From positions 160,461 to 224,460 of the forward strand of contig JAERST010000024.1 in assembly GCA_016845365.1 (NCBI GenBank): a stretch of DNA of 64,000 bases. The letters are read 5' to 3'. The DNA is from Methanobacteriota archaeon (GTDB taxonomy: Archaea > Thermoplasmatota > Poseidoniia > Poseidoniales > Thalassarchaeaceae). Shown piece after piece: positions 12,931 to 61,417 of this stretch (within the stretch, counting starts at the first letter, position 1; each line of letters begins with the position of its first letter). The translations under genes and the position numbers were made by a program. The notes below the pieces were generated by a model. That model searched no databases, was not told the origin of the DNA, and saw nothing but the letters and a program-made list of their open reading frames with translations.

Positions 12931-13014
12931 TCAGAACACCTCGTGTGAGGAACTCCACCCTCGACCTTGATTCCCCAAGAATGGGGAGGTTCGGCACGAT
13001 GCCGTGGAGTGTAA

Positions 13015-13656: not shown

Positions 13657-13821
13657 GGAGAGTTCCCTGCGGAGACGACTCTAATCCGGCCCCTTATCAA
13701 TCCGACGGGGTGCTACCGAGCGATTGTCGCAGATGTGGAGTGGAGTCAAGGGTCACGAATGCTTCAATCAGTTGTGATTCTTACCGTATTGCTCAAAGAG
13801 CCCGCGACTCCGGATGCGTTC

Positions 13822-14229: not shown

Positions 14230-14238
14230 GGTGAACAC

Positions 14239-16227: not shown

Positions 16228-16357
16228 GCTTCGACGCGAGTCCTCTCCTCAATCAACTAATCGCCGCGGATAGGCGACAATTTCAGAAAACTGCAGTCGG
16301 ATTGTTAGATGCGGAAGCCTGCAACCAATCAAGAACTCCAGAGCACCTGCCTCGGTC

Positions 16358-31014: not shown

Positions 31015-32949
31015 TCATTCCTGACCGACCTCCGCGATGAATTCCGAGCGACAGGCAGGACATCGAGCCTTGACTGGCCTGCGCTCGAGTGGCACCTTGA
31101 GAGTCTGGTCGCACGCGGGACAAGAGAGTAAGTCGGTCATTGAGAGGGCGACAGAAGGCGCATCGCTAGCCGGCGGAGGAGCGGGTTCAGATTCGCTCGG
31201 AACCGAGGGGCCGCCGGACGATTCGGTCTGAGGAGGGGCTGGCTGTGCAGATTGGTCAACCCCGACACCGTCCTCGTTCACGGTGGCCTCGACGGTAAAC
31301 CGCGAGGTGCAAGCAGGACATTTGACCGCACCAGAATGAGTCGCGGGAATGCTGAGGTCCTGCGCGCACTGAGGACAGGCAATCTGCCTTTTTTCAGCCG
31401 CTGCTGCTTTCTTGCGCTCGCCTCGGGTCTCGCGCAAACGATTGAACCTCGACTCGCCAGTATCGGCGACGCGTTCTGATACGGTGCGGTAGAGTACGAG
31501 TATGAACAGAACGAGAACCAATCCCGATACCGCACCATAAATCGCCGCGCTGAGATCGAATGGTAATTCCGCGCCCGACTCGGCATCAGAGTACGAGACA
31601 ATTTCGAGCAATTTGTTCTCTGAGATGCCGCTCGTAACCCATTGAATTTCGACTTCGACAACCTTTGAATCGGGCCAAGAAGCAATCGTCAGTGAGCCCG
31701 AAATCGACCCGCCCGCGTTGACTTGTGAAGTGCTCTTCGAATCCAAAACCATGCCGTCGGAGGTTCGGACAACTCGGACTTCGCCGGACAAAGTTGGGGT
31801 ATTGCCCTCGTTGCTCAGGACATAGGGAATGACCACTTGCTCACCTGTTCGTGGCGGGTTTGCCACACCGGAAGATTCCACATCAAGGTCCAGGACTGGA
31901 GGGCTGAGGGTATGATGCAACTCCAGATCCTGCGAGGCAGTCCAATCGACTGCCTCGACGGTAATGATGAGAGAGTCGGCGGAGGGATGTCCGAGCGAGA
32001 GCGTGAGTTGACGACGACCGGGGTCGATGATTAGTTCGAATGATTGCAGGAGGGATTCAATTGTCTGGTCTAGAATTGAAACTTCAACATTGACTAAGCG
32101 AGAACGACCATCGCTGAGGTAGAGAGAAATGTCCGCATCAAGCCCATTTGTCAGGTCCCAATTCGTCGAGTCGATCACCAGAGTCATCGTTTGAGAGTCC
32201 AAGATTTCTACCGAAGCGCTACCGTTCAGTTCGCGCGCTACGCCTCCATTGGGCGAGTGAAGACGCCAATCGATGTCCATTGGACCGGCGGTGCTTGGAA
32301 TGAATGAGGCAGATACCTCTCTGCTCGAACCCGGGTTGATCGTGATTGGTTCACCGAGAACTGAAGGCGAGTTTTCGGGGGTCAATTCCAGCTGCACCGT
32401 CTGCTGAGATGTCCCTTGGTTGTGGACGAGAATTGATGCGGTCAGTGTGTCGCCGACGTGGGCGGGCTCTCCGATTAAGGCGATTTCAGGCGAGCCGGCG
32501 GCGGTGAGATTTAGCGGATTGGGTTCAACGGGCAGAACTCGGGTTGAACTCTGAGTGCTGGAATCGATTGAGAAGACGAGGTGGAGCTCTCCTTCGGGTA
32601 GTGGTCCAAAGGAGATATTGACTGTGATGACTTCCTCTGAACCATCGAGGAATCCGGTCAAATCAGGAGATGATTCCTCGCCAAAAATTGTCTTGAATGA
32701 CCATTCGTCATGACCTGCGCTGGTGTCGGAATTTGTGATTTCGATTGAGAGTTGAATCTGGTATCCGGCGAATGCTGAAGCATTCCCAGATGGTTGGCCA
32801 GTTGAGCCGTCGACGAACACTATCTCCCAATCGCTTGATGCTTCAATCGTGAAGCGGTCCTGGGCCTCGGCAGATGTGGCGAATCCGAGGGCGATGATAC
32901 TCACGAGGCAAATCATGAGGATGTTGTGAAGGCTTCGCCTAGCCACCAT
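31015..32949 (-). CDS. Exported multi-domain beta-rich protein with a single TM and a cytoplasmic tandem zinc-ribbon tail
   Basis: Signal peptide (ILMICLVSIIALGFATSAEA), ~430 aa of Ser/Thr/Asp-rich Ig/CARDB-like repeats, TM (AVSGLVLVLFILVLY), then CPQCAQDL...CPACTSRF and CPACDQTL...CPACRSEF. Confidence 0.5.
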   Translation of the reverse strand: MVARRSLHNILMICLVSIIALGFATSAEAQDRFTIEASSDWEIVFVDGSTGQPSGNASAFAGYQIQLSIEITNSDTSAGHDEWSFKTIFGEESSPDLTGFLDGSEEVITVNISFGPLPEGELHLVFSIDSSTQSSTRVLPVEPNPLNLTAAGSPEIALIGEPAHVGDTLTASILVHNQGTSQQTVQLELTPENSPSVLGEPITINPGSSREVSASFIPSTAGPMDIDWRLHSPNGGVARELNGSASVEILDSQTMTLVIDSTNWDLTNGLDADISLYLSDGRSRLVNVEVSILDQTIESLLQSFELIIDPGRRQLTLSLGHPSADSLIITVEAVDWTASQDLELHHTLSPPVLDLDVESSGVANPPRTGEQVVIPYVLSNEGNTPTLSGEVRVVRTSDGMVLDSKSTSQVNAGGSISGSLTIASWPDSKVVEVEIQWVTSGISENKLLEIVSYSDAESGAELPFDLSAAIYGAVSGLVLVLFILVLYRTVSERVADTGESRFNRLRETRGERKKAAAAEKRQIACPQCAQDLSIPATHSGAVKCPACTSRFTVEATVNEDGVGVDQSAQPAPPQTESSGGPSVPSESEPAPPPASDAPSVALSMTDLLSCPACDQTLKVPLERRPVKARCPACRSEFIAEVGQE

Positions 32950-33969: not shown

Positions 33970-34931
33970 GCGAAGGGCTCTTCGAAGATTTGGAGGCACT
34001 TCCTCACAACGAAATCGAGGAGGCTTCGGCTGACCTTGAGCGGCAATTGCGCTCCTTTGAGGACGAATTCAAATCTCTACGCGAGGAGCGCAGAACCCAA
34101 GTCGATCTGGTCAAATCTCTGCGCTCAGCAGTCGGAGATATCGAAGAGGCGAGTTCTGAGCGCAAAGCCTTGCTAAACCAATTTCACAAAGTCAAGAAAG
34201 ATGCTGATAAAAATCGCGAAATTCGCGACCGAGTAAATCGCTCGATTCCACCGCCAGCCGCAGTACTCGAGGAATGGCTGGCGGACACCTACACCAAATT
34301 GACAACTATTGACAACGATTTGACAGCGGTTCCAACCCTCAACAGGGAACTCGACTCATTTCGGCGATTCTTCGAGTTGCAAGCCGCTGTCGTGCGCAAG
34401 CGAGAAGCAGAGGATGCGCACGCGGTTTACGTCAAAGAAGTCGATAAATTGCGAAAGATTACCAGTGAACTCGATGCCACTCGTAAATCACAAGAGACCA
34501 GCGCTGAGTCCGCAACCGAAGGAAGCGAACTCAGCACTGACAAGGTTACCCGAAGCGAGATTCGCAAAATCAGCAAAGCGATTAGCGCAATCGACAAGCG
34601 GCTCGATGCGATCAAATCCCAGCGAAAAGACGCACGAAGAGAAGCCGGTCGATTGCGCTCATACCTGAAAATAACCGGAGGACGCGGTTCAAGAATCCGC
34701 ATCGCAGATGTCAAGGATAGGGCGAGCAGCGGCGGTTCTCTGAACGCCAACGAATTGACCGCACTGCTCGACTCTGGAGGCCTCTCAAATCTGACCTCAG
34801 AGAGTAAGAAAGAGAGTGCCGAGCAAGCAGCATCACCCAAGCGAGGTCGCGGTGGTAAGAAGGGAAAGCGAAGACTTGGTGTGACCCGCGGTGGACCAAG
34901 GCGCGGCAACTCGGCCACACGGAGAGAATGA
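33966..34931 (+). CDS. COG1340-like coiled-coil protein with RGG/KKG-type basic tail (paralog 3)
   Basis: Charged coiled coil. Tail PKRGRGGKKGKRRLGVTRGGPRRGNSATRRE is similar to the tail of paralog 1. Start overlaps the stop of paralog 2 (ATGA). Confidence 0.55.
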   Translation: MSEGLFEDLEALPHNEIEEASADLERQLRSFEDEFKSLREERRTQVDLVKSLRSAVGDIEEASSERKALLNQFHKVKKDADKNREIRDRVNRSIPPPAAVLEEWLADTYTKLTTIDNDLTAVPTLNRELDSFRRFFELQAAVVRKREAEDAHAVYVKEVDKLRKITSELDATRKSQETSAESATEGSELSTDKVTRSEIRKISKAISAIDKRLDAIKSQRKDARREAGRLRSYLKITGGRGSRIRIADVKDRASSGGSLNANELTALLDSGGLSNLTSESKKESAEQAASPKRGRGGKKGKRRLGVTRGGPRRGNSATRRE

Positions 34932-34971
34932 GTGGAGAATATCTGCATCTTTGATTCTCCTATGCGCTTAT

Positions 34972-35892
34972 ATGGAAAACTCAGGACGAGAGGCCGCAGG
35001 AGGCGATTACATGGAAATGGAGGGTGCCGAAATTCGCGGACTTCTTCAGCCTCGTTGCGACGATATCCAGGAGCAGATTTCCTTCAATCGCGAGGAGCGC
35101 GATCAATGGAATGCCAAGGTTCGTACTCTCCTAGACGAGAGAAATGAACTCAATCGTCAAGTCAAGGAACTCATCACCGAGGTCCAAAATCAGAAGTCTC
35201 TGCGTGACGAAGCAAATCAAACGGTTCGCGATTTGAAGGACCACCGTGCGGAAAAGACCGAGGAACTCAAAGTCATCCGCACGAATTTCCGTGAGAAACT
35301 TGCTCAGCAGGGCGAGGAAGAAATCCAGCGTGAGAGAAATGACAGGAGTCGCTCTCCGGCACGAATTAAAACCGAGATGGACAAACTCGATCGCCTATAC
35401 CAACATGGTGGAGTTTCACCCAAGAAGGAACGAGAGCATATGATGAAAATGAAGCGGCTCTCACAGGAACTTCGAGAGGCAAAAGAGCGCAAATCAGATG
35501 GTGGCATTCGCGACCTCAAGATGCAATTGAGAGATGCTGAAAAGCAGCAGGAAGAAGCTCACAAGAATGTCAAGAAAGCGGTCTCCAGCGCCCAAGAAGC
35601 CCACGATTTGATGGCTGAACTCTCTGAAGAAGTCGATCGACTTCGCGAGAAAGCAAATTCAGCCCAATCTGGCGTAACCCGCGCAAAGCGCGAAGCCGAT
35701 TCGCTTCACGGACGCTACATCGTCTCGCTACGCTGCATTCACTCGATGCAAGACCTGTTGAAGGCATTGGATGCACGCGAGAAGGGTGGAGGCGATGATG
35801 ATGAGCAGGTTGAAGTCGCTGACTTGATGACTCGATTGATGTCTGGTGACACGCTTTCAACCGACGAAATCATGGCCCTTCAGCGGAATTGA
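34972..35892 (+). CDS. COG1340-like coiled-coil protein (paralog 4; acidic tail)
   Basis: ERDQWNAKVRTLLDERNELNRQVKELITEVQNQKSLRDEANQTVRDLKDHRAEKTEELK is the archetypal COG1340 repeat style. Start ambiguous (34891, 34972 or 35011). Confidence 0.5.
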   Translation: MENSGREAAGGDYMEMEGAEIRGLLQPRCDDIQEQISFNREERDQWNAKVRTLLDERNELNRQVKELITEVQNQKSLRDEANQTVRDLKDHRAEKTEELKVIRTNFREKLAQQGEEEIQRERNDRSRSPARIKTEMDKLDRLYQHGGVSPKKEREHMMKMKRLSQELREAKERKSDGGIRDLKMQLRDAEKQQEEAHKNVKKAVSSAQEAHDLMAELSEEVDRLREKANSAQSGVTRAKREADSLHGRYIVSLRCIHSMQDLLKALDAREKGGGDDDEQVEVADLMTRLMSGDTLSTDEIMALQRN

Positions 35893-46491: not shown

Positions 46492-47868
46492 ATGGGATTT
46501 GACGAAATCGAAAGAGAGGTTGAGTTCTCAGCCACCTCCAATAGTCGATTGGTCCAATTCGAAATCGCTGCCGACAAATCGGTTGAGTTAATCGTTCCAC
46601 CAACGGTTTACCCCCCACGCCGAGATACGAAATTGATGTTGGCCGCACTTGGCAAATTGACTTGCGAACCGGGCCACTTAGTTGAGATTGGAACCGGCTC
46701 GGGAGCCATCGCAATCGCGATGGCGAAACGAGGCTGGGATGTCTCAGCCTTTGACGTCAATCCCCTCGCTGTCGCAGCAGCCCGTGGCAATGCGGAGCAG
46801 CAGGGTGTGAGTGAACGGATCACAGTGGAGGAGGGTGGTGTAGGCGAAGAGAGGTGGGCAATTCCACGAGAGGCTGAACTCGTCATCTGGAACTTACCAT
46901 ACCTCGAACCTGCTCTTGGCGATGAATCTCCGCTGGGTCCGATGGAGGAGGCAGCCCTTGGCGACGAGATAGGCTCGAATTGGTCGCTAAGTTTGCTGAA
47001 CTCGATTGACGCGCGACAATTCGACTCGAGGTTATTCGTTCTGCTTTTCCGCATCGACCCTACCAGCCCTAGTCGGCCCCGAGATTGGATTGAAGCTGGC
47101 TGGGCTTCTCGGTCGCTGGCGAAAGAGAGAATTGGAGACGATACCCTCGAAGCCGTTGCCTTTTGGAGACCAGATTCCGGGCGGCCTGCGCTATTCATCG
47201 AAGAGTGTGAATCGACGATGGATGCCGCACGAAATCTCTCTGGCGAAGGTTGGTTGAGAGTTCGTGCGGGATTCCAATCCGCAGGCCGAGGTCGCCGCGA
47301 TTCAACATGGGCCTCTAACGCAGAAGATATGACCGCGACCTGGAGCCTTGATGCGAGCGTTCTCGAACGTCATCCGCCCGGCTTGCTGCAGACCGCGGTG
47401 GGAGCCAGAATTGCCGACATTCTCGGAATGCAAATGAAGTGGCCAAATGACTTGCTTATCGAGCGGCGAAAGGCTGGCGGAATTCTGGTCGAATCTAGTT
47501 CGTTAGATGGAAGAGTAAGAATTGGCGTTGGACTAAATCGTAACCCTGGGGAATTGGAATCTGAAGCAACCGCAGGCTGGTCAGAAACTATTGGTGAAGT
47601 AGAGGCCAGCGAGGTCTTTGCTCAGATAGATTCCTCGATGGCCTCTCTCTTCGATCCATCACCACCAATCCCTCAGTCGAAATCGTCCGATTTGTGCCGA
47701 GATTCATGGCGGGTGATGGCCCAATCTATCTCGCGAGGAATTGTCTGCGCGCGAGGAGATAATCCTGTGCAAATCGTTGGATTGCAAGAGACCGGAACGT
47801 TGCGCTTGATCGAGAGTGAGCATCTGCTCGACCTCGATGAGGTCGGAAGCGTAGTCATCTCTTTCTGA
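46492..47868 (+). CDS. birA: Fusion protein: HemK/Mtq2-like SAM-dependent methyltransferase (N-terminal) + biotin--protein ligase BirA catalytic domain (C-terminal)
   Basis: N-terminal EIGTGSGAIAIAMAKRGWDVSAFDVNPLAVAAAR (SAM motif I) and NLPYLE (NPPY-like motif IV). C-terminal GRGRRDSTW (BPL GRGRxGRxW motif) and KWPNDLLIERRKAGGILVE. Confidence 0.75.
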   Translation: MGFDEIEREVEFSATSNSRLVQFEIAADKSVELIVPPTVYPPRRDTKLMLAALGKLTCEPGHLVEIGTGSGAIAIAMAKRGWDVSAFDVNPLAVAAARGNAEQQGVSERITVEEGGVGEERWAIPREAELVIWNLPYLEPALGDESPLGPMEEAALGDEIGSNWSLSLLNSIDARQFDSRLFVLLFRIDPTSPSRPRDWIEAGWASRSLAKERIGDDTLEAVAFWRPDSGRPALFIEECESTMDAARNLSGEGWLRVRAGFQSAGRGRRDSTWASNAEDMTATWSLDASVLERHPPGLLQTAVGARIADILGMQMKWPNDLLIERRKAGGILVESSSLDGRVRIGVGLNRNPGELESEATAGWSETIGEVEASEVFAQIDSSMASLFDPSPPIPQSKSSDLCRDSWRVMAQSISRGIVCARGDNPVQIVGLQETGTLRLIESEHLLDLDEVGSVVISF

Positions 47869-49266: not shown

Positions 49267-49572
49267 TCAATCGTAGGTCAGATATCGCTGGTATCTACGG
49301 CGCTCATCGCGAGCCCAAGCATTGTCCGGTTCAATCTCCAGAACCTTATCGTAATACTCGACAGCCTTCTCAAAATCAGAGAGGTATCGCCCGTTCATGT
49401 GAGCGAGGTTGTTCAGAACAGGAACACAGCGCGAATCGGCTTCCAACATCTCGAGGAGAATCTTCTCCGCCCCATTGATGTCCATCATCTCCATCTTATC
49501 CTCGGCTTCATCGAGGCTGGCGATTTGCTCATCGCTCAAGCGGTAGATATTCTTCCACACCGGACCTGCCAT
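49267..49572 (-). CDS. Small TPR-repeat protein
   Basis: LEMLEADSRCVPVLNNLAHMNGRYLSDFEKAVEYYDKVLEIEPDNAWARDERRRY contains two or three TPR-like helical repeats. The ORF-track 5' extension, which would overlap the divergent gene, is unlikely to be real. Confidence 0.45.
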   Translation of the reverse strand: MAGPVWKNIYRLSDEQIASLDEAEDKMEMMDINGAEKILLEMLEADSRCVPVLNNLAHMNGRYLSDFEKAVEYYDKVLEIEPDNAWARDERRRYQRYLTYD

Positions 49573-49722
49573 TACACCATCGAGAGCGCTGATTCGTATG
49601 AGGTTTCGCAGGTTCCGAACGCTCGGCCTCAAAGGCGCTTGAGACGGGGACCCCGTAGGGGTCAAACTGAAACCTTGATATCCCGATGTCGGGTGGAATG
49701 CTTCGTCGTAAGAGGTCAAAAG

Positions 49723-50538
49723 ATGAAGACGCATCACTCGACCTCGCACAGGCTGCTAGTACTGGCCTGTTTCGCATTACTTCTAGCGGGTTCGAGTCAA
49801 GCCTACTCCACCGGCATCGGTGGCGACGAGGATGACAAGGGAGATGTCGCTCTTGCTGGCTGCACCTGCCACACCGAACTCCCCGACAATTCGGTAACGG
49901 TCATCCTCGACCAATTGCCTTACCATTACACAGCAGGCACCACCTACGCCATGAAGATTCAACTCATCGGCGGCCCTGAAATAGACACTTCCTCGACCAC
50001 CGGCGGATTCGCCATGCGCGTGAGCGCAGGAAGCCTCGCCGGTGGCGAAGGTTACGAGAACCAAGTTCAGAATTGGGAGGACGACCCGACCAGTCTAACA
50101 CACGCCGGATCAGGTGGGTCAACTGCCGACCGCATTTGGCTCATCACTTGGACCGCGCCAGAGGAAGGCACTGGCGTAGTGACATTTTCACTCTCTGGTA
50201 ACGCAGTTAACGGAGACCACGCTCCATCTGAGCTCGACCGATGGAATCGCCTGACCACCTCGGTCGACGAAGGCACAGACAATGGCGATACTCGAACTAT
50301 CTTCAGCGGAAATGGAGAGATCGAGCCCCCCGCGCCAGCGGAGACTCACATCGACCTCCACCACATGGGAGCAGCGCTTCGAGCCCACTGGCTCGGCCTG
50401 CTCGGCTTCGGCGCAGTAATCCTTGTGATCCTATTCTGCGGACTATTCCTCCGCTACGGATTCTCTCGTCATTACGAAGGCCGAAGCAACCTTCTCAAAC
50501 TACGAATCAAGCATCTTCGAAGGGGTGACCAACTGTGA
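49723..50538 (+). CDS. Exported membrane-anchored Cys-X-Cys-His domain protein (paralog of 3021..4019), first gene of the Rieske/cyt b cluster
   Basis: Signal peptide MKTHHSTSHRLLVLACFALLLAGSSQA, domain GCTCHTEL...THAGSGGSTADRIWLITWTAPEEGTGVVTFSLSGNAV...DRWNRLT, C-terminal TM. The ORF-track start at 49222 is an upstream artefact. Confidence 0.6.
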   Translation: MKTHHSTSHRLLVLACFALLLAGSSQAYSTGIGGDEDDKGDVALAGCTCHTELPDNSVTVILDQLPYHYTAGTTYAMKIQLIGGPEIDTSSTTGGFAMRVSAGSLAGGEGYENQVQNWEDDPTSLTHAGSGGSTADRIWLITWTAPEEGTGVVTFSLSGNAVNGDHAPSELDRWNRLTTSVDEGTDNGDTRTIFSGNGEIEPPAPAETHIDLHHMGAALRAHWLGLLGFGAVILVILFCGLFLRYGFSRHYEGRSNLLKLRIKHLRRGDQL

Positions 50539-50984
50539 AAGACGACGTCGTCATGAAACTCCTGCGCGAGGTTAAGTCCGGCAAGGTCAGCGTTGAGGAC
50601 GCACGCGAAGCATTGACCGGAGTAGACCTGAGCGAGGAGAATTACGTTGCTGCGGTGGACCACGGAGTATTCAACGAACCCGAGCCAGGAACAATCGTTC
50701 GAGCGAGCCTCTCCCCAACAGGCGAGTCCGCCCTCGTAATCGTCTTCGCACTCTGGGGTATTCTCTGGACACTTTACTGGGCTGGATCTCTCTCATACGG
50801 ACTCTACAATCACTGGGACCAGCAGCGTCTTTCATTCCACTTGGGTATGACGCTGCTGACTGTCATAATGATGGGAATCGTATACATGCGATTCGTCATG
50901 CCGGATGTAGTCGTCGTCAAGCACAGGCGAAATAAGTACATCCCGCCAAATGATACGGAAGGTTGGCAACAATACGAGGTGTGA
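50535..50984 (+). CDS. Small membrane protein (soluble N-terminal helical domain + 2 TM)
   Basis: Translationally coupled between the CxCH protein and the Rieske gene. Confidence 0.45.
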   Translation: MKDDVVMKLLREVKSGKVSVEDAREALTGVDLSEENYVAAVDHGVFNEPEPGTIVRASLSPTGESALVIVFALWGILWTLYWAGSLSYGLYNHWDQQRLSFHLGMTLLTVIMMGIVYMRFVMPDVVVVKHRRNKYIPPNDTEGWQQYEV

Positions 50985-50987
50985 TGT

Positions 50988-51842
50988 ATGGCGCGAAGAT
51001 TCCGATTACGCCCACTTCCTGGTGCCGATGAGCAGGTAACTGAATCGAATCCGGTCATCGACCGCCGTGAATTCATGCGGCACTCATTCAACACGGCTGC
51101 TGGAGTCATCACGATGGCTAGCCTCGGCAGCATCGGCTTTGCTTCACTTCTGATGGGAACCGCCGATTCATCCGGCGGCGATACCGCCGTCCGCTTCTGG
51201 GTGCCGACCGGCGCAGAAGATTCTGCTTGGTACGGCGACCGTCACCTCGAACCAATGTCATACTCCGCCTTCGTCGCCGCAGCAGAGGCTAGCCCGACCG
51301 GCATGTCCGGCGCTCAGGGTGTTTGGTCCGGACTGCCGGTGAACGTAGTCTACGTACCTCATGCAGAGAATGCTAACTCAGCACCGAGCACAAACTCTCC
51401 CCGCTTCCAATTCATGGATGGCTACACCGAGAGTGGGAAGTATGTCGGAAGCGGGTTCGAGTTGGATGAGAATCCAGACTATGCAGCTCTCTCAATCCAC
51501 GACAATCTCATCGTGATTTTCTCTCGTTGCACACACTTGTGCTGCATTCCTGGCTGGCAATTGGTGCAGAACGACTTCACCAATGACCAATGGACTCCTG
51601 GTGCAGTCGACGCGGGCGGGAACAAATTGTTCTGTATTTGTCACTCGAGCCGATTTGACCCGACCGCGATCGAAAAGAATCGAAGTCGAAACCGTTCGAC
51701 AGGAGCCGAATTCGATTTCTTCGGAATCCGCCGAACCGGCGGCCCCGCTCCTGTCGGTTTACCACTCATCCCGTGGGTTATCACGGGCGATACCATTGAA
51801 GCCCTGCCCGACTTCAAAGATTGGTACACATATTGCGACTGA
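50988..51842 (+). CDS. Rieske [2Fe-2S] protein with twin-arginine signal
   Basis: Tat motif DRREFMRHSF plus TM. Rieske boxes CTHLCC and CICHSS. A long N-terminal periplasmic insertion precedes the cluster-binding domain. Confidence 0.85.
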   Translation: MARRFRLRPLPGADEQVTESNPVIDRREFMRHSFNTAAGVITMASLGSIGFASLLMGTADSSGGDTAVRFWVPTGAEDSAWYGDRHLEPMSYSAFVAAAEASPTGMSGAQGVWSGLPVNVVYVPHAENANSAPSTNSPRFQFMDGYTESGKYVGSGFELDENPDYAALSIHDNLIVIFSRCTHLCCIPGWQLVQNDFTNDQWTPGAVDAGGNKLFCICHSSRFDPTAIEKNRSRNRSTGAEFDFFGIRRTGGPAPVGLPLIPWVITGDTIEALPDFKDWYTYCD

Positions 51843-51848
51843 GGTGAG

Positions 51849-52718
51849 ATGATGCTACAATTCTGGTTCCTTTGGCTATTCATCGCCCTCATCGTCGTCC
51901 TCGTCGCATTCACACTGCGTAAGGAGCGCGACGACATGCCTCGCAAGGATATCTTGCGCGCTGTCGAAACCAGCGCAGGCAGCATGGGATTGGCTGAGAA
52001 AACCTTCCTCTGGGCTTTCTCTTGGCTCGACACGCGCTTCCGCATCCAGGATTATTGGGGCATGAGTCGGGATGCGTATTACAGCGTGCACCGTCAAATG
52101 CCTCTTACGCACGCTGAGAAGTATAAGCTTCGAATCATCTGGTATTGGTATCCACTCTACTGTTTGGGTGGAATCTCCTTCCTCGCCTTCGTGATTTTGG
52201 TCATCACCGGAACTGTCCTTGGCCTCTACTATGTCCCTGGTGGAGAAGGCGACCCAACCCCAGCTTATTCATCGATGGAATTCATCATGACGCAGCTTCC
52301 ATTCGGTTACATCATTCGCTCGATTCACCACTGGACGACACACTTCATGGTGGCTGCAGTGTTCCTTCACATGTGTCGAGTTTACTTCACCGGCGCATAC
52401 CGCAACCCTCGTGAGCTAAACTGGCTCATCGGCGTCGCTCTGATGTTCTTCACCATCTTCTTCGGCTACTCAGGCTACCTGCTTCCTTGGGACAGTTTGG
52501 CCTTCGGAGCCGCCACCATTGGCATCAACATGGCGAACTCGACCCCCCTCATCGGAGGGTGGGTCGCGACCGCGATGTTCGCAGGAACATCGCTCTCCGG
52601 CCAGACGGTTACGCGTATGTATTTCCTACACGTATTCATTCTGCCCGTCGTCGTCACAGCGCTAATTCTAGCGCATTTGTTCATCGTTTGGGTGCAGGGT
52701 ATTGCGGAGCCGCACTGA
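51849..52718 (+). CDS. Cytochrome b (b6-type N-terminal four-helix subunit)
   Basis: Heme ligands H-x13-H (IHHWTTHFMVAAVFLHM) and H-x14-H (HVFILPVVVTALILAH), plus the conserved YLLPWD motif. Confidence 0.9.
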   Translation: MMLQFWFLWLFIALIVVLVAFTLRKERDDMPRKDILRAVETSAGSMGLAEKTFLWAFSWLDTRFRIQDYWGMSRDAYYSVHRQMPLTHAEKYKLRIIWYWYPLYCLGGISFLAFVILVITGTVLGLYYVPGGEGDPTPAYSSMEFIMTQLPFGYIIRSIHHWTTHFMVAAVFLHMCRVYFTGAYRNPRELNWLIGVALMFFTIFFGYSGYLLPWDSLAFGAATIGINMANSTPLIGGWVATAMFAGTSLSGQTVTRMYFLHVFILPVVVTALILAHLFIVWVQGIAEPH

Positions 52719-52733
52719 TCGGAGGTCTTTGGC

Positions 52734-55511
52734 ATGGGAATGATCGATAGATTCGGGCGCATCGCGGATACCTACGTACGCGAGAAGAGCACTCTCCTCG
52801 AGGCTGAGCAAGAGCGCAAGCGAGTTTTCGTCGGGCACGCATTCTGGCCGACTGAAGTCTTGCGCGATTCGATTATCTTCGCCGCAATGGTGATGGTTTT
52901 GGCATTCTATTGCTGGTTGATTCCACCGCCACTTCACAGCGCGGCGGACCCATTCGCTCAGGCCGGCTTCGTTTTCCCTGACTGGTATGTTCTGTTCTCC
53001 TATGGATACCTGCGATGGGGCGAATATCTGCCGCAATTCGTTATTCCAGCCGGCCCGATTGGAGAATTCCTCGGCGCCCCTGTGATTTCATGGAACGCTG
53101 CATGGTGGGGCGCCTTCCTAACCGGAATCCCAGTCGGTATTCTCGCGCTTCCACCATTCCTCGGCGGGCGCGAGAAGAGACCTGTCGAGGACCCTTGGTT
53201 TGCTACCGCTGGTGCGGTTTACCTCGCGCACGTTTGGTTCATTTCAGTTTATTCGATCAATATCTTCCTCGAATTATACGCGAAGGATAGAACCGATTAT
53301 TGTTGGGCGAATTCTCATCATGTCCTCGATTGTGGAAGACAAGCTCCTTGGACTGCTGAAGTCTTCAATGCGATTCCTTGGATTCTGACTGGGATATTCA
53401 TATTCGCCGTGTTATTCTTCGGCGTCAGATGGTTCCTTGTCAATTCGATAGGAGCTCGACTGACGCCGGCGATCGGCAAGCAGGTTGCAATCGGCTCGCT
53501 CGTGCTTGCCGTAATGATCTCAGCAGTCACATGGCCAATCTACGAGGGAGGCTTCTGGGATTACGGCGGACTCGGCGCGATGGACGATGTCGAGGAACTC
53601 GAAACCATGCGCGGCCAGCCCGCCGACACTCTGGTCTACGATGGTAAGGGAGATGATTGGGGAGAATGGGGTGACCTCTGCATGACATTCACCGAATCCT
53701 CAGACCTCGGGGTCTGGGATAGTCTGGATGAAAGCGAAGACCCGGCTAAATGGTGTGTCCTTCCCGCCCAGCATTGGTCGAATTGGGGCTTATTCCAACC
53801 AACCCAAGCCACCATCATCGATTTCGAAGGCGTGAACGGACACGCTGATATCGACACCAGACGAAATGCCGCTGGTCAAGCAGCAGAATACAGCGGAAAT
53901 TCTGATTCATCAACCATCAGCCAAAGTTGGACTGATGTGATGCACATCGAAGACCTCGGCCTCTCCTCGGTCTTCGTCGATATCGGCTGCAACTTCCGCA
54001 CAACTGTGCGTGGAGCCGGCAGCCACACCCAAGACCTCAGCATCAGCAATGACGCAGGAAAGGTCCTGTGGTCAGCTGATGGCGAGTGTGACAGTACCAC
54101 TCTCAAACTCGCACCGGGCAATTACAATCTCGAATACAGCGTAACATCTAGCAATGTCAACGAGTCAGTGATGATGATCACCGATTTCAACGCAGTGGCC
54201 TTCCAACCATTACTCCTAGACGAAAATGGTGCTGCCCCCCTCCGAGTGAACATCCCAGCAGGCACCGACCTCGAGGCGATGACACTCGAGAATCCAACCT
54301 TCCACAAGAATCCCAAGAGCCTCGATGCGAAGTTGACCTATTCGATGTTCATTCCATGTTTAGGAATCGGAGCAATCGTCTACATGTTGATGCGCAGCAT
54401 GGCTCGTGGATACGAGTGGGAGATGAACAAGTGCTACGGCTGCGACCTTTGTGACGATGCTTGCCCAGTCCGCTTGTTCAACGCAGGTGACAAACTCAAC
54501 ATCATCTACAATACATGGAATAACGAGGACGATGGAGTTCCACTGTATTCCTGCCTAACTTGCACAGCATGTACCAATGCATGCCCACAACTCGTCGATT
54601 ACGATTCATACGTCGACATTCGCCGCAACCTAATGGTCGGCGGCCCACCAGCCGCCGAGATACCCCACACTCTCCTTCAAGCCGTCCTAGCGGCAGAGGC
54701 TGAGGAGGACGCCGATGCGGAGTTCATTCCTGTGGAGGAATACCCGATCGACTCTAGCGTGGGATACTACCCAGGATGTGTCGACTACATCGACCAAGAG
54801 ATGATTTTCAGCCATGTCAACGAGGGAGAAATGAACCTCGGCGAGACCACGACAGCAGCTTTCACAATCTTCGATGAAATGCAAAAGGACGTCACCTACC
54901 TCGGTCGAGACTTCCTGAAGTGCTGCGGCCACGACCAAAAGTGGCAAGGAATGACGGAAGTCTTCGAGAAACTCAAGGCCTACAATCAGAAGAAGCTCGG
55001 AGAAAGCGGAATCGACACTCTCGTCACATCATGCGCAGAGTGCTTCCGAACCTTTGCGATGGATTACGAACTTGAGGACATGAAGGTCATGCACACGACT
55101 GAATACCTCATCGAGAACGGCTTTGACTTCGACCTCGCTACCCCAGAGGACGTCACCGTGACCTACCACGATCCTTGCAGGCTCGGTCGCCATATGAACA
55201 TCTATGAGGAGCCGCGAGACCTTGTCCGCGGCGTCAACGGAGTGAATTTGGTGGAGATGGAACACTCCGGCGAGGATGCTCTTTGCTGCGGTGTATCGAG
55301 CATGATGTCTTGCAATGAGAATAGTCGCGCCCTACGCCTAGAGCGCTTCGATGAGGTGAAGGCGACGGGCGCAGACATCATGCTGACCAGTTGCCCAAAG
55401 TGCGTAAGCCACTTCGAGTGTCTGAAGTTCGAGGGTGACCCACGTCACGATTTCGAAATCCTCGACGTGGTCTCTTTCCTTGCACGGCAAATCGATGCGA
55501 AGCGCCAGTGA
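52734..55511 (+). CDS. Fusion: cytochrome bc subunit IV-like membrane domain (PDWY motif) + 2 extra TM + ~280-aa acidic extracytoplasmic domain + TM + cytoplasmic HdrD/GlpC-like module (2x[4Fe-4S] ferredoxin + 2 CCG domains)
   Basis: N-terminal FPDWYVLFSYGYLR (PEWY-type Qo motif). C-terminal CYGCDLCDDACP and CLTCTACTNACP. CCG domains KCCGHDQ...CAEC and DPCRLGR...CCGVSS...CPKC. Confidence 0.85.
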   Translation: MGMIDRFGRIADTYVREKSTLLEAEQERKRVFVGHAFWPTEVLRDSIIFAAMVMVLAFYCWLIPPPLHSAADPFAQAGFVFPDWYVLFSYGYLRWGEYLPQFVIPAGPIGEFLGAPVISWNAAWWGAFLTGIPVGILALPPFLGGREKRPVEDPWFATAGAVYLAHVWFISVYSINIFLELYAKDRTDYCWANSHHVLDCGRQAPWTAEVFNAIPWILTGIFIFAVLFFGVRWFLVNSIGARLTPAIGKQVAIGSLVLAVMISAVTWPIYEGGFWDYGGLGAMDDVEELETMRGQPADTLVYDGKGDDWGEWGDLCMTFTESSDLGVWDSLDESEDPAKWCVLPAQHWSNWGLFQPTQATIIDFEGVNGHADIDTRRNAAGQAAEYSGNSDSSTISQSWTDVMHIEDLGLSSVFVDIGCNFRTTVRGAGSHTQDLSISNDAGKVLWSADGECDSTTLKLAPGNYNLEYSVTSSNVNESVMMITDFNAVAFQPLLLDENGAAPLRVNIPAGTDLEAMTLENPTFHKNPKSLDAKLTYSMFIPCLGIGAIVYMLMRSMARGYEWEMNKCYGCDLCDDACPVRLFNAGDKLNIIYNTWNNEDDGVPLYSCLTCTACTNACPQLVDYDSYVDIRRNLMVGGPPAAEIPHTLLQAVLAAEAEEDADAEFIPVEEYPIDSSVGYYPGCVDYIDQEMIFSHVNEGEMNLGETTTAAFTIFDEMQKDVTYLGRDFLKCCGHDQKWQGMTEVFEKLKAYNQKKLGESGIDTLVTSCAECFRTFAMDYELEDMKVMHTTEYLIENGFDFDLATPEDVTVTYHDPCRLGRHMNIYEEPRDLVRGVNGVNLVEMEHSGEDALCCGVSSMMSCNENSRALRLERFDEVKATGADIMLTSCPKCVSHFECLKFEGDPRHDFEILDVVSFLARQIDAKRQ

Positions 55512-55666
55512 GCGTGCACCGCGCCGATGAGTGCGCGAAGAAGCAGTGATTGCGACGGCGGTTTTTGCCAACTGGCGACGCGGAACGATGACCCCATTTT
55601 TCCCGTTGTAACTCGACTTCGAATGACCGTAGCCTTGAGAAGTCAGAGCCGGCAGCATCGATTCGG

Positions 55667-55999
55667 ATGACCGATATCCCCGACCTCGCTGCTCGCCGAG
55701 CGCGCGAACAGCGTCGCATTCGCATGGTCATGAACGCCATGCGCGCGGAAGAACGCGCCAAACTCAAGGGCGGCGAGGATGCGGTAGCCTGGGTTAAGGA
55801 GGAATTGTGCATTGGTTGTGACCAGTGTACCATCGTTTGCGATGACGACGCGATCGAACTCTACGACACCCCGATGGCAAGCCCGATTATGGACGTCGAT
55901 GTCAACCGAAAAGCCCGCGTCCTGCGCGACCCATGCACCGGCTGCAAACTCTGCGTGCTAGCTTGCCCGACGGACGCGATTATCATGATTGATAGGTGA
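55667..55999 (+). CDS. 2x[4Fe-4S] ferredoxin with basic N-terminal extension
   Basis: CIGCDQCTIVCDDDA and CTGCKLCVLACPTDA, preceded by an Arg-rich leader. Confidence 0.8.
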   Translation: MTDIPDLAARRAREQRRIRMVMNAMRAEERAKLKGGEDAVAWVKEELCIGCDQCTIVCDDDAIELYDTPMASPIMDVDVNRKARVLRDPCTGCKLCVLACPTDAIIMIDR

Positions 56000-56003
56000 T
56001 TGA

Positions 56004-56333
56004 ATGGCCAAAGACGACCCTGTGAGATTTGGTGCCGAATTCGGGCCGAAAAGGACTGAGAATTCTACTGGTGTGTCTCTTGGGACATTCAAGAATTTAG
56101 TTTGGGTTTCGAATCTTGGTGGACTTCTGCTTGTTGCGATTGGCCTTGAATTGATTATGGTTCAACAGCAATTCTATCTTGGATTAGCAGCGATTGTCGG
56201 AGGAGTTGCTGTTGCACTCTTCCCGTCGAATTACGAGATTGTCGGTATGGAAGCGATTCAGGGTGGAGATGCGCCAGAAGGTGAAGATTCAGTGGCTTCT
56301 GGCGACGATAAGGTCAAGGACTCCGATTCCTAA
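56004..56333 (+). CDS. Small membrane protein with acidic C-terminus
   Basis: Two TM helices (VWVSNLGGLLLVAIGLELIM; LGLAAIVGGVAVALF). Confidence 0.35.
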   Translation: MAKDDPVRFGAEFGPKRTENSTGVSLGTFKNLVWVSNLGGLLLVAIGLELIMVQQQFYLGLAAIVGGVAVALFPSNYEIVGMEAIQGGDAPEGEDSVASGDDKVKDSDS

Positions 56334-59034: not shown

Positions 59035-59152
59035 GTCTCAGTCGCTTGTGCCACCACTCTGATGGCCTTCAAGCAACCGATTGCGAGCAAAAGCAGACTG
59101 CTGTCTGAAAGGGAATGCTCATGGGCGGCTTATCCTCGTTGCACCGCATACG

Positions 59153-60706
59153 ATGTCTGGTGTGAAGGAACGCATCGATGACTTGCGCCGCCGCAAGGCG
59201 CAGGCTGAGGCTGGCGGCGGCCAGAAACGAATTGCTGCACAACACGCGCGCGGGAAGATGACCGCGCGCGAGAGAATCGAACAATTGTTGGATGAGGACT
59301 CCTTTGTCGAGGTCGATGGGCTAGTCGAACACCGTTGCCGAGATTTCGATATGGACCGCAACGTGATTCCGGGTGATGGGGTCGTTTGCGGGCACGGAAC
59401 AATCGGTGGTCGCACCGTGTATTGCTTCGCCCAGGATTTCACCGTTTACGGAGGTTCATTGGGCGAAATGCACGGTTTGAAGATCTGCAAAATACTCGAT
59501 ATGGCTCTCAAAACGGGCGCTCCTGTGATCGGTCTGAACGATAGCGGAGGCGCCCGAATCCAAGAGGGCGTAGCGAGCCTTGGATCCTACGCTGAGATAT
59601 TCTTCCGTAATGTGCGCGCCAGCGGTGTGATTCCACAAATTTCTGTAATTATGGGTCCATGCGCTGGCGGAGCGGTCTATTCACCAGCCATTACCGACTT
59701 TGTGGTGATGGTTGACCAGACAGCACACATGTTCATCACGGGCCCTGAGGTAATCAAGACGGTGACCAATGAGGAGGTCACATTCGAAGACCTCGGCGGA
59801 GCAGGAACGCATGCGAGCCGCTCCGGAGTGACTCATTTTACCGCCGAGGACGACGAGGAGGCATTGGATCTAGTTCGCGACCTCGTCGATATGCTTCCTC
59901 TCAACAACTTAGAGAAACCTCCAACCAAAGACTCGGCAGACCCCTTCGACAGGGTCTGCGAGTCCCTAGACGACCTAATCCCCGACGATTCGACAACTCC
60001 GTACGATATCGTCGATGCAATCGAAGCTACTCTCGACGATGGTGCATTCCTTGAAGTCCAAGCCGATTTCGCAGGAAATATCGTCGTCGGCTTCGGGCGA
60101 CTCGGCGGACACACAGTCGGAATCGTCGCCAACCAACCAAAGGTATTGGCGGGCTGCCTCGATATCGACGCCTCGGTCAAGGCAGCCCGATTCGTCCGCT
60201 TCTGCGACGCTTTCAACATCCCACTCCTGACCTTTGTCGACGTTCCCGGATTCCTACCCGGCGCCAGCCAGGAGTGGGGCGGTATCATCCGCCACGGTGC
60301 GAAGTTACTCTACGCCTACGCAGAAGCGACAGTCCCCAAACTCACGGTAATCACTCGCAAAGCCTACGGAGGCGCATACGATGTGATGAGCAGTAAGCAC
60401 ATCCGCGGCGATTACAATATTGCTTGGCCTACCGCCCAGTTAGCGGTAATGGGAGCAGAGGGCGCAGTGCAAATCATCCACAGGCGAAGAATCGGCGCGG
60501 CAGGAGACCCCGATGGTGAGCGTACTCGTCTCATCGACGATTACGAGGACACATTCGCAAATCCATACCGAGCAGCATCTTTGGGCTACCTAGACGATGT
60601 AATCCAGCCAAGAGAAACACGAGAAAAGCTCACCAAGGCGCTGGGCGCTCTCCTCGAGAAAGAGGAGATTCGCCCAGCACGAAAACACGGCAATATTCCA
60701 TTGTGA
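59153..60706 (+). CDS. pccB: Propionyl-CoA/methylmalonyl-CoA carboxyltransferase (biotin-dependent carboxylase beta subunit)
   Basis: Two crotonase-like carboxyltransferase domains, highly conserved throughout (e.g. [21 protein letters not shown]). Start set at MSGVKERI. Confidence 0.9.
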
Positions 60707-61009
60707 GGCAAACGGCATGGCGCGGAAGAAAGACAAGTATCTCGCTGCTGCGATTCTTGCAGTAATGCTGGAGGAAGCAAGCGGAGAATCGCTTGCTCCC
60801 AGCGAAGGTCGCGAGGGTGGCGATGCTTGGTCTCGCGACCACCGCCGTTCACTCATCGGCCGCAGAAATCTATTCCGCGCGCGCACACGAAGAAGCACCA
60901 CTAGGTGAATCGATAAGAGCCAAAAAGAAGCACACCGAGGTGAAACGATGAATCCCAGCAAAAAGTGTAGATCATCTGATCACATCCAGAAGGTTACAGA
61001 GGTGGCAAA

Positions 61010-61417
61010 ATGGTAACTCGCAAGGTGAAGGTCGACGGTGAAGAATTCGAGGTCGAACTCGAAATATCCGAAGGCGTCTGGAACGTCACCGTCGCTGGCA
61101 AAGAATTCCAGATAGAAGTCGAAGGAGGGTCCGCTACCGAACAGGGTGCGAAAAAGCGCAAGCGAAGCGGGCGAGGCAAGAAGTCAGGAACAATCTCCTC
61201 GTCAATTCCAGGAAAAATCGTCTCAATTTCAGTCGAAGAAGGCCAAACCGTCGCAGAAGGCGATGTAGTCATGATTCTGGAAGCGATGAAAATGCAAAAC
61301 GAAATTCACGCTCCACTATCGGGAACAGTCTCTGCGGTCAATTGCCAACCGGGCGATAGTGTCGAAGCGAATACCCCTCTGGTGGTCATTACGCCCGAAG
61401 AAGACAAAACTGAGTAA
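61010..61417 (+). CDS. Biotin carboxyl carrier protein (biotinyl domain)
   Basis: C-terminal biotinyl domain with EAMKMQNEI (biotinyl-lysine in AMKM). Ala/Lys-rich linker. Confidence 0.85.
   Translation: MVTRKVKVDGEEFEVELEISEGVWNVTVAGKEFQIEVEGGSATEQGAKKRKRSGRGKKSGTISSSIPGKIVSISVEEGQTVAEGDVVMILEAMKMQNEIHAPLSGTVSAVNCQPGDSVEANTPLVVITPEEDKTE

Follow-up and report, generated by a model that had tools for sequence, protein, structure and literature searches.

A subunit IV fused to an HdrD-type Fe-S module in a Rieske/cytochrome b6-type gene set of a Marine Group II archaeon

What would a Rieske/cytochrome b complex do with an HdrD-type Fe-S module built into its subunit IV, and in which direction would electrons pass through it? 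The question is raised by seven same-strand open reading frames (ORFs), labelled A-G here, at positions 49723-56333 of a 64-kb stretch of archaeal DNA, the whole of which we call the window. The window comes from a Marine Group II (MGII) archaeon of the Poseidoniales, family Thalassarchaeaceae, and its closest genomic match is a Candidatus Thalassarchaeaceae metagenome-assembled genome (MAG) in which protein E is 90% identical. MGII archaea are described as globally abundant in the ocean, and Poseidoniales as aerobic heterotrophs (Tully, 2019; PMC6336850). A first-pass annotation of the window had read A-F as a translationally coupled set of six genes, for a secreted CxCH protein, a small membrane protein, a Tat-dependent Rieske protein, a b6-type cytochrome b, a 925-aa protein and a 2x[4Fe-4S] ferredoxin, and had described the 925-aa protein, E, as a subunit IV/PetD-like segment joined to a cytoplasmic HdrD-like module. 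The ORF table contains all six ORFs where that annotation had listed them (Table 1).

Subunit IV and Fe-S module in one polypeptide

We identified 474 homologs of E, the top 120 of which are 891-929 aa long and 85-92% identical, and full-length homologs of 917-942 aa lie on hundreds of independent contigs. Among GTDB species representatives we found 548 loci of relatives; the best 80 of these, which are the basis of all statements on gene context below, match at 59-90% identity and cover both MGII families. Nearly all of the 80 are from Poseidoniales or unclassified archaeal MAGs, with two filed under a bacterial bin name. The match runs from residue 1 to residues 921-925 of E in 76 of the 80, the other four being cut by contig ends or gaps, and the order A-B-C-D-E is kept in every locus with enough flanking sequence (65-78 of the 80). 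All 18 cluster cysteines of E are invariant across Poseidoniales, including 8/8 in the dicluster, and identity is highest in the dicluster (91-99%), followed by the first CCG domain (84-96%) and the PetD-like part (78-93%). From this pattern of conservation we conclude that the PetD-HdrD fusion is real and under selection. The single ORF and the full-length homologs on hundreds of contigs rule out an assembly or frameshift artefact merging two genes, and the earlier proposal of a fusion in one polypeptide therefore holds across related genomes, together with the gene order.

The N-terminal part of E had to be identified through relatives and a family profile: a Pfam scan of the 925-aa window protein gave no PF00032 match, and a phmmer search of the PDB with residues 1-289 gave marginal matches to subunit IV, in register, with E 0.12. 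We recovered relatives with an exhaustive search using residues 1-560 of E, which gave 141 hits among 1.84 billion representatives. Relatives match PF00032 above the cut-off, among them P0222 (E 1e-12) and P0233 (E 2e-11). A nine-sequence profile of the N-terminal 185 residues (profile A2) gave 52 hits in the PDB, all of them C-terminal halves of cytochrome b or b6f subunit IV, and the best (E 1.4e-12) was aligned across helix E, the PEWY loop and helix F. A single profile of the shorter relatives (the short-form family, see below) matched EtfD (E 2.7e-42), cytochrome b (3.4e-13), HdrC (5.2e-12), subunit IV (7.3e-10) and HdrB (2.9e-9) in the PDB. Together, the PF00032 matches of the relatives and the profile matches indicate that E is a chimera of the form [subunit IV]-[HdrC]-[HdrB]. 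The PetD-like start with a PDWY motif, as first annotated, is thus recovered by profile A2, and PF00032 is found in relatives rather than in the window protein. The PDWY motif (residues 81-84) is invariant in the family. In a survey of cytochrome b sequences, PDWY is reported to go with menaquinol and low-potential Rieske proteins (Kao and Hunte, 2014; PMC4122944), and its presence at the Qo site of E points to menaquinol as the likely substrate.

The C-terminal part of E has two CxxCxxCxxxCP motifs, at residues 567 and 607, where Fer4 families match, and two CCG motifs, CX47CCGX35CxxC and CX35CCGX34CxxC, formed by C682, C730, C731, C767 and C770 and by C815, C851, C852, C887 and C890. The motif search and a match to PF02754 (E 4.8e-23) bear out the two clusters and two CCG domains of HdrD type that had been annotated, and their order, an N-terminal 2x[4Fe-4S] part followed by two CCG domains with complete Cys motifs, is that of HdrD. 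With the short-form-family profile, the dicluster matched HdrC (9sfi_E, E 5.2e-12; 5odc_C, E 5.7e-12). A profile of the CCG part (A4) matched EtfD in the PDB with E 1.2e-29, and HdrB (8rvv_B) with E 2.8e-11 over residues 5-264, which is almost the whole of HdrB. Consistent with these matches, Foldseek aligned the CCG part with EtfD (E 5.3e-14), LutA (target TM-score 0.78) and HdrB (0.64-0.66). The best solved match of the module as a whole was Mycobacterium smegmatis EtfD (9ojn), with E 1.5e-21 for the single sequence and E 2.7e-42 for the profile.

Judged by its gene context and family scores, E is not HdrD in the strict sense, since an HdrE partner is lacking and none of its equivalog scores passes a cut-off. 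We found no HdrE-like gene (a NarI-type dihaem cytochrome b anchor) in the cluster or its flanks, and E is rejected from the curated CCG equivalogs TfrB, LdhH, GlpC, GlcF, TmcB and DsrK by NCBIfam scores that all lie far below the cut-offs, the best being 110.6 bits for TfrB against a cut-off of 385. E is not EtfD either, because its membrane domain and its cluster ligands differ: the membrane part is PetD-like, the first CCG domain has Cys730-Cys731, and an invariant Glu769 occupies the position of EtfD His583. The CxxC variants compared were CAEC in the window protein, CNGC in HdrB and CPHC in EtfD, and the cysteine pattern of E is nearer to that of HdrB than the pattern of EtfD is.

On which side of the membrane does the module lie? 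Hydropathy and charge gave six transmembrane (TM) helices in an N-in/C-in arrangement, and the secondary structure of an AlphaFold2 (AF2) model agrees. The first three correspond to subunit IV helices E, F and G; two more lie at residues ~206-242 and ~245-272, and a sixth, at ~527-556, directly precedes basic residues and the dicluster domain. In solved b6f structures the N-terminus of subunit IV is on the n-side, and Fe-S clusters are assembled in the cytoplasm. An n-side N-terminus and an even number of helices place the Fe-S module in the cytoplasm. The annotated layout of two extra TM helices, an acidic soluble domain and a further TM helix was found, with an acidic domain of 268 aa, and the annotated topology, acidic domain outside and HdrD-like module inside, agrees with the six predicted helices. 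Short-form relatives lack the insertion at residues 181-552; in them a single fourth helix brings the chain back to the cytoplasm, much as helix H does in the cytochrome b of bc1.

The outer domain itself (residues ~266-533; 53529-54332) is acidic and beta-rich, with a pLDDT of mostly 81-92 for residues 379-490 in the AF2 model, and Foldseek found it similar to a GOLD-type beta-sandwich (E 1e-4). It is the least conserved part of E, with 40% identity to MGIIa, and two Cys (C419 and C452) and one His are its only invariant residues of these two kinds. We considered a redox role for this domain and rejected it, having seen no metal-site pattern in a GOLD-like fold with one invariant His and two invariant Cys. 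A relative, P0213, has a Laminin_G_3 domain on PetD instead of the acidic ectodomain.

Table 1. Features of the gene set, with positions in the window, and gene content at loci of relatives
Feature	Coordinates	Strand	Description
A	49723..50538	+	271 aa; signal peptide, outer-face beta-sandwich, C-terminal TM anchor, cytoplasmic tail, GCxCH
B	50535..50984	+	149 aa; small 2-TM membrane subunit, DUF7318-related
C	50988..51842	+	284 aa; Tat-exported, TM-anchored Rieske [2Fe-2S] protein
D	51849..52718	+	289 aa; b6-type cytochrome b
E	52734..55511	+	925 aa; one uninterrupted ORF
E residues 1-180	52734..53273	+	subunit IV/PetD-like: helices E, F, G; ef loop with PDWY (81-84) Qo motif
E residues 181-552	53274..54389	+	Poseidoniales-specific insertion: TM helices, acidic outer beta-sandwich, returning TM helix
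E residues 553-640	54390..54653	+	HdrC-type 2x[4Fe-4S] dicluster; begins 15 residues past last TM helix
E residues 676-925	54759..55511	+	HdrB-type double CCG domain; both five-Cys sets complete
F	55667..55999	+	110 aa; soluble 2x[4Fe-4S] ferredoxin, basic N-terminal helix
G	56004..56333	+	109 aa; 2-TM protein, acidic tail
L082			multihaem cytochrome c, Rieske, cytochrome b, fusion, HdrC-like, HdrB-like, 1010-aa HdrA-like, FlpD
L086			fusion, flavoprotein, polyferredoxin, FlpD
L089 (Thermoplasmata MAG)			DUF7318, Rieske, cytochrome b (Big_5 fused), fusion, polyferredoxin-FlpD
L091, L092			gene order as L089: DUF7318, Rieske, cytochrome b, fusion, polyferredoxin-FlpD
L090 (Ca. Geothermarchaeales)			fusion, FrhB-like, HdrA-like, FlpD, second HdrD-like, GcvH
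P0165 contig			fusion, polyferredoxin
L094			split form: PetD+dicluster (445 aa), overlapping separate CCG protein (320 aa), polyferredoxin
L093 (Halobacteria MAG)			PetD+dicluster without CCG part; cytochrome c upstream

Subunits, the neighbouring ferredoxin and the rest of the window

If E contributes subunit IV, the other subunits should be those of a Rieske/cytochrome b complex. Protein D matches PF00033 (E 1.4e-41), and in an alignment of 86 sequences at least 85 retain its haem ligands H160/H174 (H-x13-H) and H261/H276 (H-x14-H), in agreement with the b6-type cytochrome b of the first-pass annotation. Helix A of D contains C105-L-G-G, a CxGG motif whose Cys is conserved in 83 of the 86 sequences. 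This motif is tied to covalent haem cn (Dibrova, 2017; PMC5600118), and in D it is a probable site for that haem. The b6f subtype is marked by CxGG in helix A, H-x14-H in helix D and separate genes for b6 and subunit IV, and all three are present (the latter two genes being D and E). At its N-terminus D has an extra hydrophobic helix (residues 5-23) and then an 82-aa basic loop (14 K+R) before helix A (51849-52160); the loop is predicted to face the cytoplasm, where it may touch the Fe-S module. Other lineages instead have a cytochrome b with large fused Big_5 outer domains (758-878 aa).

The cluster boxes of protein C, CTHLCC and CICHSS, align with CTHLGC and CPCHGS of the solved bc1 Rieske protein 7yr9_A (E 5e-4). 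The boxes and an RR Tat motif are conserved in 75 sequences, and a TM helix is present, so that the annotation of C as a Tat-dependent Rieske protein stands. The match to TIGR01416 (E 2.2e-11) scored 44 bits against a cut-off of 97, and C is best described from these alignments as a divergent member of the Rieske proteins. Protein B matches Pfam DUF7318 weakly, below the cut-off (E 4.6e-5); the loci of relatives carry clear DUF7318 proteins at the position of B.

Protein A matches the NCBIfam choice-of-anchor V family (E 6e-24), and its motif G-C47-T-C49-H50 is invariant in 25 aligned homologs. The first-pass annotation was right about the signal peptide and the CxCH motif, but a C-terminal TM helix makes A membrane-anchored rather than secreted. 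This helix and the cytoplasmic tail are nearly invariant, which fits an integral subunit. The layout of A, with CxCH ~20 residues past the inferred cleavage site, a beta-sandwich and a C-terminal anchor, mirrors that of cytochrome f, in which Y1 is followed by C21xxC24H25 (sequence validated against the PDB). Sequence homology of A to cytochrome f is not supported: there is no sequence similarity, and the likeness, which we treat as a lead, is one of fold and layout alone. CxCH is not known as a haem c motif. No recognisable cytochrome f, c1 or c subunit is encoded in the gene set, A having CxCH and not CxxCH. By its position and topology, which are those of cytochrome c1/f, A is a candidate for the p-side subunit or the electron acceptor. 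Overall, A-E is, on the features described, a complex III-type (Rieske/cytochrome b, b6f-type) gene set of an MGII archaeon, and the predicted complex has the defining sequence features of the b6 subtype apart from a recognisable c-type cytochrome subunit.

We next consider what lies downstream of E. F is a 2x[4Fe-4S] ferredoxin, as annotated (Fer4_21, E 1.4e-12). It scored 47.2 bits with TIGR01944 rnfB against a cut-off of 68.7, with a match restricted to the ferredoxin-like part of the profile (positions 85-163), and we rejected F as a true RnfB because of this sub-threshold score and the lack of a TM helix. MGII archaea are described as lacking RnfACDEG (Tully, 2019; PMC6336850), and F is probably the 'orphan RnfB' that has been reported for them. 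G starts 4 nt past the F stop codon, has the conserved motifs RFGxEFGP and ALFPSNYEI, and matches DUF7322 weakly. F lies within ~1.5 kb downstream of E, in either orientation, in 74 of the 80 loci, and G co-occurs and co-inverts with F in 73. The F-G pair is on the same strand as E in Thalassarchaeaceae and is inverted (convergent) in most Poseidoniaceae loci. From this neighbourhood, F is presumed to be the cytoplasmic redox partner of E, with G as a possible membrane tether for F.

The spacing of the genes agrees in part with the translationally coupled six-gene set that had been annotated. The intergenic gaps A/B, B/C, C/D and D/E are -4, +3, +6 and +15 nt, the B start codon overlapping the A stop codon by 4 nt, so A-E are tightly spaced. 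By contrast, F is 155 nt from E, and the spacer holds two T5 runs, at 55562-55566 and at 55597-55601, which resemble terminators of archaea. The inversion of F-G in most Poseidoniaceae indicates that F is a conserved neighbour and is not translationally coupled.

An archaeal RNA polymerase operon lies just upstream of the gene set, and FtsZ-like, TPR and MGMT genes are neighbours of the cluster in Poseidoniales. In the flanks and the rest of the window, the only functionally linked gene that we found was one for TatC (1892-3019, minus strand; PF00902, E 1.4e-13), beside an ORF without a Pfam match (3021-4019); its presence is consistent with Tat export of the Rieske protein C. The divergent TPR gene (49267-49749, minus strand) has a longest ORF that overlaps the start of A by 27 nt. 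Distant loci match only ~100 residues of this ORF, suggesting that the true TPR start is probably further downstream; some 150 nt upstream of A would then be free for a divergent promoter. Membrane transhydrogenase genes, for PntB (PF02233, E 1e-164) and a PntA-like protein, form a proton-linked redox module at 4094-7091 (minus strand). DUF7121 proteins at 27592-28575 (minus strand) and 34891-35892 (plus strand) bracket large ORFs without a Pfam match and a CARDB-domain protein (31015-32949), a block that may be a cell-surface gene island. A 458-aa protein (46492-47868, plus strand) combines an N-terminal SAM-methyltransferase (PrmA/MTS-like) with a biotin/lipoate protein ligase (PF03099), an unusual fusion that lies close to biotin-dependent carboxylase genes (59081-61417).

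Related archaeal loci and known systems

Is the fusion peculiar to Poseidoniales? A search with the short form P0222 gave dozens of clusters of proteins of 539-800 aa that have PF00032, Fer4 and PF02754 in one protein, and whose sources include Thermoplasmata and Ca. Geothermarchaeales. The gene content of their loci varies (Table 1), as do their CCG domains: the second Cys of the first CC pair is lost in P0173 and P0197, and a CxxC Cys is lost in P0228. The occurrence of dicluster-only, split and fused forms indicates that the constant element is an n-side [4Fe-4S] extension of subunit IV, and this extension would face cytoplasmic electron-transfer proteins in all forms. At the Ca. Geothermarchaeales locus L090, the FrhB-like, HdrA-like, FlpD, stand-alone HdrD-like and GcvH-type lipoyl carrier genes (positions 3707-9710) are reminiscent of the Hdr-like (sHdr) systems for sulfur oxidation, in which lipoate-binding proteins take part.

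The closest relatives of the module in Ca. Methanoperedens (47-50% identity) are stand-alone proteins at the head of an Hdr cassette, which at one locus (L087, positions 8001-17011) consists of genes for HdrD-like, HdrC, HdrB, HdrA, FlpD, HdrA, FlpD and FrhB proteins. There is no Rieske/cytochrome b gene near this HdrD-like cassette. The makeup of the cassette is such that the L082 operon resembles it welded to a Rieske/cytochrome b operon. We considered whether the 'unusual Rieske/cytb complex' of Methanoperedens (Arshad, 2015) is the same system and found no support for this: the HdrD-like gene is in a separate Hdr cassette, and the paper, where it treats that complex, gives cytochrome c subunits only. 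A confurcating Hdr complex has been proposed for Methanoperedens, and the soluble HdrD-like protein would be an extra component of it.

Judging from subunit composition and motifs, the MGII complex may be likened to b6f and Firmicute-type menaquinol-oxidising complexes on the p-side and to HdrDE and EtfD on the n-side. It shares with b6f and the Firmicute-type b6c complex a split cytochrome b6/subunit IV, H-x13-H and H-x14-H ligands, CxGG, a Qo motif in the ef loop, a Tat-exported Rieske protein and a p-side beta-sandwich subunit that a C-terminal TM helix anchors. It differs from them in having a subunit IV enlarged by three TM helices, an ectodomain and a cytoplasmic Fe-S module of 370 aa, and a DUF7318 small subunit in place of PetG/L/M/N. 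Like HdrDE, DsrMK, HmeCD, TmcBC and QmoC, it places an HdrC+HdrB-type module on a membrane b-type cytochrome linked to a quinone or phenazine pool. However, in place of a dihaem cytochrome b of the NarI/HdrE type, the membrane partner of the module is a Rieske/cytochrome b6 complex with a Qo site; module and subunit IV are covalently joined, and there is no CoM/CoB or DsrC context. EtfD, like E, combines membrane helices, 2x[4Fe-4S] and two CCG domains in one polypeptide, and forms a wire from the cytoplasm to a haem b/menaquinone site in an aerobe. By contrast with E, the membrane part of EtfD is a 5-TM monohaem domain and not subunit IV, and its partner is ETF, where that of E is presumably a ferredoxin.

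The first-pass annotation had called a bc-type complex joined to an HdrD-like module and a ferredoxin an architecture not described before. This is overstated, as related pieces have been reported before. In Ca. Angelarchaeales (Thermoplasmata), which belong to the same phylum, a complex III locus with cytochrome b is adjoined by hdrD-like and rnfB-like genes, and entry of electrons from ferredoxin was proposed, as we propose below (Diamond et al., 2022; PMC9038741). That locus probably belongs to the PetD-HdrD family; it has a plastocyanin-like protein upstream of the Rieske gene, where MGII has protein A. The account in that paper is a single sentence, which mentions neither a subunit IV fusion nor an analysis of domains, topology, motifs or distribution. 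A bacterial 'PDWF-FeS' clade of cytochrome b has 4Fe-4S and MvhD fusions in Magnetospirillum and Turneriella, and an Alicycliphilus cytochrome b is fused to a ferredoxin and a flavin oxidoreductase (Kao and Hunte, 2014; PMC4122944). This clade resembles the archaeal family in joining a cytochrome b that has a Qo motif to a non-Rieske Fe-S module, and MvhD/FlpD is common to both, as a recurrent partner in the archaeal family. The clade differs, as presented there, in being bacterial, in its full-length cytochrome b, in gene clusters without a Rieske protein, in having no CCG domain reported, and in having PDWF and not PDWY. For MGII respiration, a cytochrome b and a Rieske protein, no canonical bc1 and an orphan RnfB were reported (Tully, 2019; PMC6336850).

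The part of the claim that stands concerns the covalent link: in their passages on these complexes, Diamond et al. (2022), Kao and Hunte (2014) and Tully (2019) mention neither a covalent subunit IV-HdrD fusion nor a wide archaeal family. Targeted terms did not find the PetD-HdrD architecture in the corresponding parts of Dibrova (2017) and Arshad (2015), and we found no further descriptions of a Rieske/complex III-HdrD fusion in the open-access literature.

Anammox bacteria reportedly have Rieske/cytochrome b complexes with extra NAD(P)-oxidoreductase-type subunits (work of Kartal and colleagues, 2013). These too would be bc-type complexes wired to a cytoplasmic low-potential redox module; they are said to differ in being bacterial and in adding a flavoprotein and multihaem cytochromes as separate subunits rather than as a subunit IV fusion.

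The direction of electron flow

How would such a complex work? We suggest that the Fe-S module is suspended below cytochrome b on its n-side, where it would wire the haem bn/cn-Qn pocket to a partner in the cytoplasm. For Poseidoniales this partner would be ferredoxin F, with G as a possible tether; a polyferredoxin, FlpD, or an HdrA-like or FrhB-like protein would take its place in other archaea. Electrons from reduced ferredoxin would pass through F and four clusters to haem cn/bn, where menaquinone would be reduced with cytoplasmic protons. The menaquinol would then be oxidised at Qo; of its two electrons, one would go to the Rieske protein and on to the outer acceptor, and the other would return via the b haems. 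The complex would thus combine a quinol oxidase module with a ferredoxin:menaquinone entry point. We put the chances that electrons enter in this direction, from cytoplasmic ferredoxin to menaquinone via an n-side Fe-S wire, at about even.

Several considerations favour entry. One is the precedent of EtfD, whose structure shows a wire from CCG clusters through two cubane clusters and haem b to menaquinone, and which, from the structure and a proton-pumping assay, has been read as passing electrons that come from cytoplasmic ETF on to the quinone pool (Courbon et al., 2026; PMC13083937). A second is that the same direction was proposed independently for ferredoxin entry at complex III, as far as the brief statement in Diamond et al. 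(2022) goes. A third is that the otherwise unexplained orphan 'RnfB' of MGII, most likely F, would acquire a function. In addition, the CCG part is dispensable in some lineages, and passing an electron from haem bn to a low-potential ferredoxin against the membrane potential should be unfavourable. Finally, in flavin-based bifurcation, modules of the HdrA/FrhB type require a higher-potential acceptor; for the HdrA/FrhB-type flavin partners of the relatives, the quinone pool would serve as such an acceptor.

Other observations weigh against ferredoxin entry. Both CCG sites of E have full HdrB-type cysteine sets, without the two changes found in EtfD, and these complete sets leave room for thiol/disulfide chemistry. 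In EtfD, Cys538-Thr539 stands in place of the first CC pair, with a linear [3Fe-4S] cluster as the result, and the second cluster is completed by His583; both substitutions, together with solvent shielding, have been linked to non-catalytic clusters and aerobic conditions (Courbon et al., 2026; PMC13083937). Over the dicluster, the AF2 model of E is of low confidence. Nor are E and F co-transcribed, as seen from the 155-nt gap, the T5 runs and the inversion in MGIIa, and the partnership of E and F is suggested by conserved neighbourhood. Lastly, no ferredoxin-producing enzymes or alternative ferredoxin sinks were found within the 64-kb window.

The strongest alternative is flow in the opposite direction, in which the low-potential electron from Qo would pass via haems bp/bn(/cn) and the Fe-S wire to a disulfide at the CCG site or to F. 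This would be quinol-driven bifurcation by a bc-type complex, analogous to HdrDE and DsrMK but powered at Qo. Retention of all ten HdrB-type CCG cysteines with no EtfD-type substitutions speaks for such a reductase, the best NCBIfam matches of E, though sub-threshold, are of the disulfide/fumarate reductase type (TfrB, DsrK), HdrDE, DsrMK and Qmo are known to move electrons from quinol to cytoplasmic acceptors, and the fusion adjoins complete Hdr-like cassettes in L082 and L090. However, no disulfide carrier of the DsrC, TusE or lipoate type is conserved beside the Poseidoniales cluster, and aerobic heterotrophs of this kind are not known to use CoM or CoB. The dicluster-only form and the Cys losses in P0173 and P0197 indicate that CCG chemistry is dispensable for the conserved core, and reduction of a low-potential ferredoxin from haem bn would have to proceed against the membrane potential, as noted above. 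We therefore consider both the disulfide-reducing and the ferredoxin-reducing form of this explanation unlikely. The first-pass annotation had offered quinol:ferredoxin oxidoreductase, quinol:disulfide oxidoreductase or a reverse electron-flow system as functions; it is the last that we favour, the first two being disfavoured by gene context, the EtfD precedent and thermodynamics.

Could the CCG clusters instead be the active site of a dehydrogenase? They would then oxidise a thiol pair or a small substrate, or the module would be an Fe-S/anchor subunit of the GlpC, GlcF, LutA or SdhE type; in either case it would feed Qn, and F would be incidental. In fold, the CCG domains are similar to LutA (target TM-score 0.78) and to HdrB, their cysteine sets are complete, and GlpC, GlcF, LutA and SdhE are known to serve quinone-linked dehydrogenases in aerobes. 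Among the relatives, a GcvH-type lipoyl-carrier gene lies near the second HdrD-like gene of L090, and a LUD-domain/Fer4/CCG protein is encoded ~4 kb downstream in L089, L091 and L092. On the other hand, no catalytic partner of the GlpAB, GlcDE, LutBC or SdhAB type is found near the Poseidoniales cluster, where the F-G pair is the only neighbour conserved across the order, and every NCBIfam equivalog score is far below its cut-off. A dehydrogenase of this sort seems to us improbable. We give practically no credence to a mis-assembly or frameshift, or to the HdrD-like part being a decaying, non-functional relic, since the lack of PF00032 in the window protein, the 155-nt gap and the low-confidence model regions stand against one uninterrupted ORF, full-length homologs on hundreds of contigs and in the best 80 of 548 loci, 18 invariant cluster cysteines and an Fe-S part that is the best conserved of all (91-99%).

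Returning to ferredoxin entry, a more ambitious reading is tentative and, on balance, rather doubtful. The Poseidoniales enzyme, and with it the archaeal family whose loci combine genes for DUF7318, Rieske, b6 and subunit IV-FeS proteins, could conceivably be b6f-like complexes with a built-in n-side ferredoxin:quinone reductase, in which A is possibly a distant cytochrome f-like subunit. The series of dicluster-only, split CCG and fused HdrD forms, and of fused forms with HdrA, FrhB and FlpD genes, might then document how Hdr-type cytochrome b dehydrogenases were joined with Q-cycle complexes. As tentatively, the complex might represent, in hard-wired form, the much-debated path from ferredoxin to cytochrome b6f (haem cn) in cyclic electron flow.

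For MGII archaea, our analysis shows that the cytochrome b, the Rieske protein and the orphan 'RnfB' form one conserved locus, in which subunit IV is joined covalently to an Hdr-type Fe-S wire, with the orphan 'RnfB' beside it. If electrons from ferredoxin enter at Qn, this would explain how ferredoxin is re-oxidised in these archaea, would constitute a new entry point into the Q-cycle, and would provide a natural, genetically fixed model of the disputed ferredoxin-to-b6f route. If electrons flow outward, the complex would be a quinol-driven bifurcating reductase. In either direction, the fusion defines a sizeable family of archaeal bc-type complexes, as yet uncharacterised; some of its members come from anaerobes, where this fusion is coupled with HdrA, FrhB or FlpD modules.

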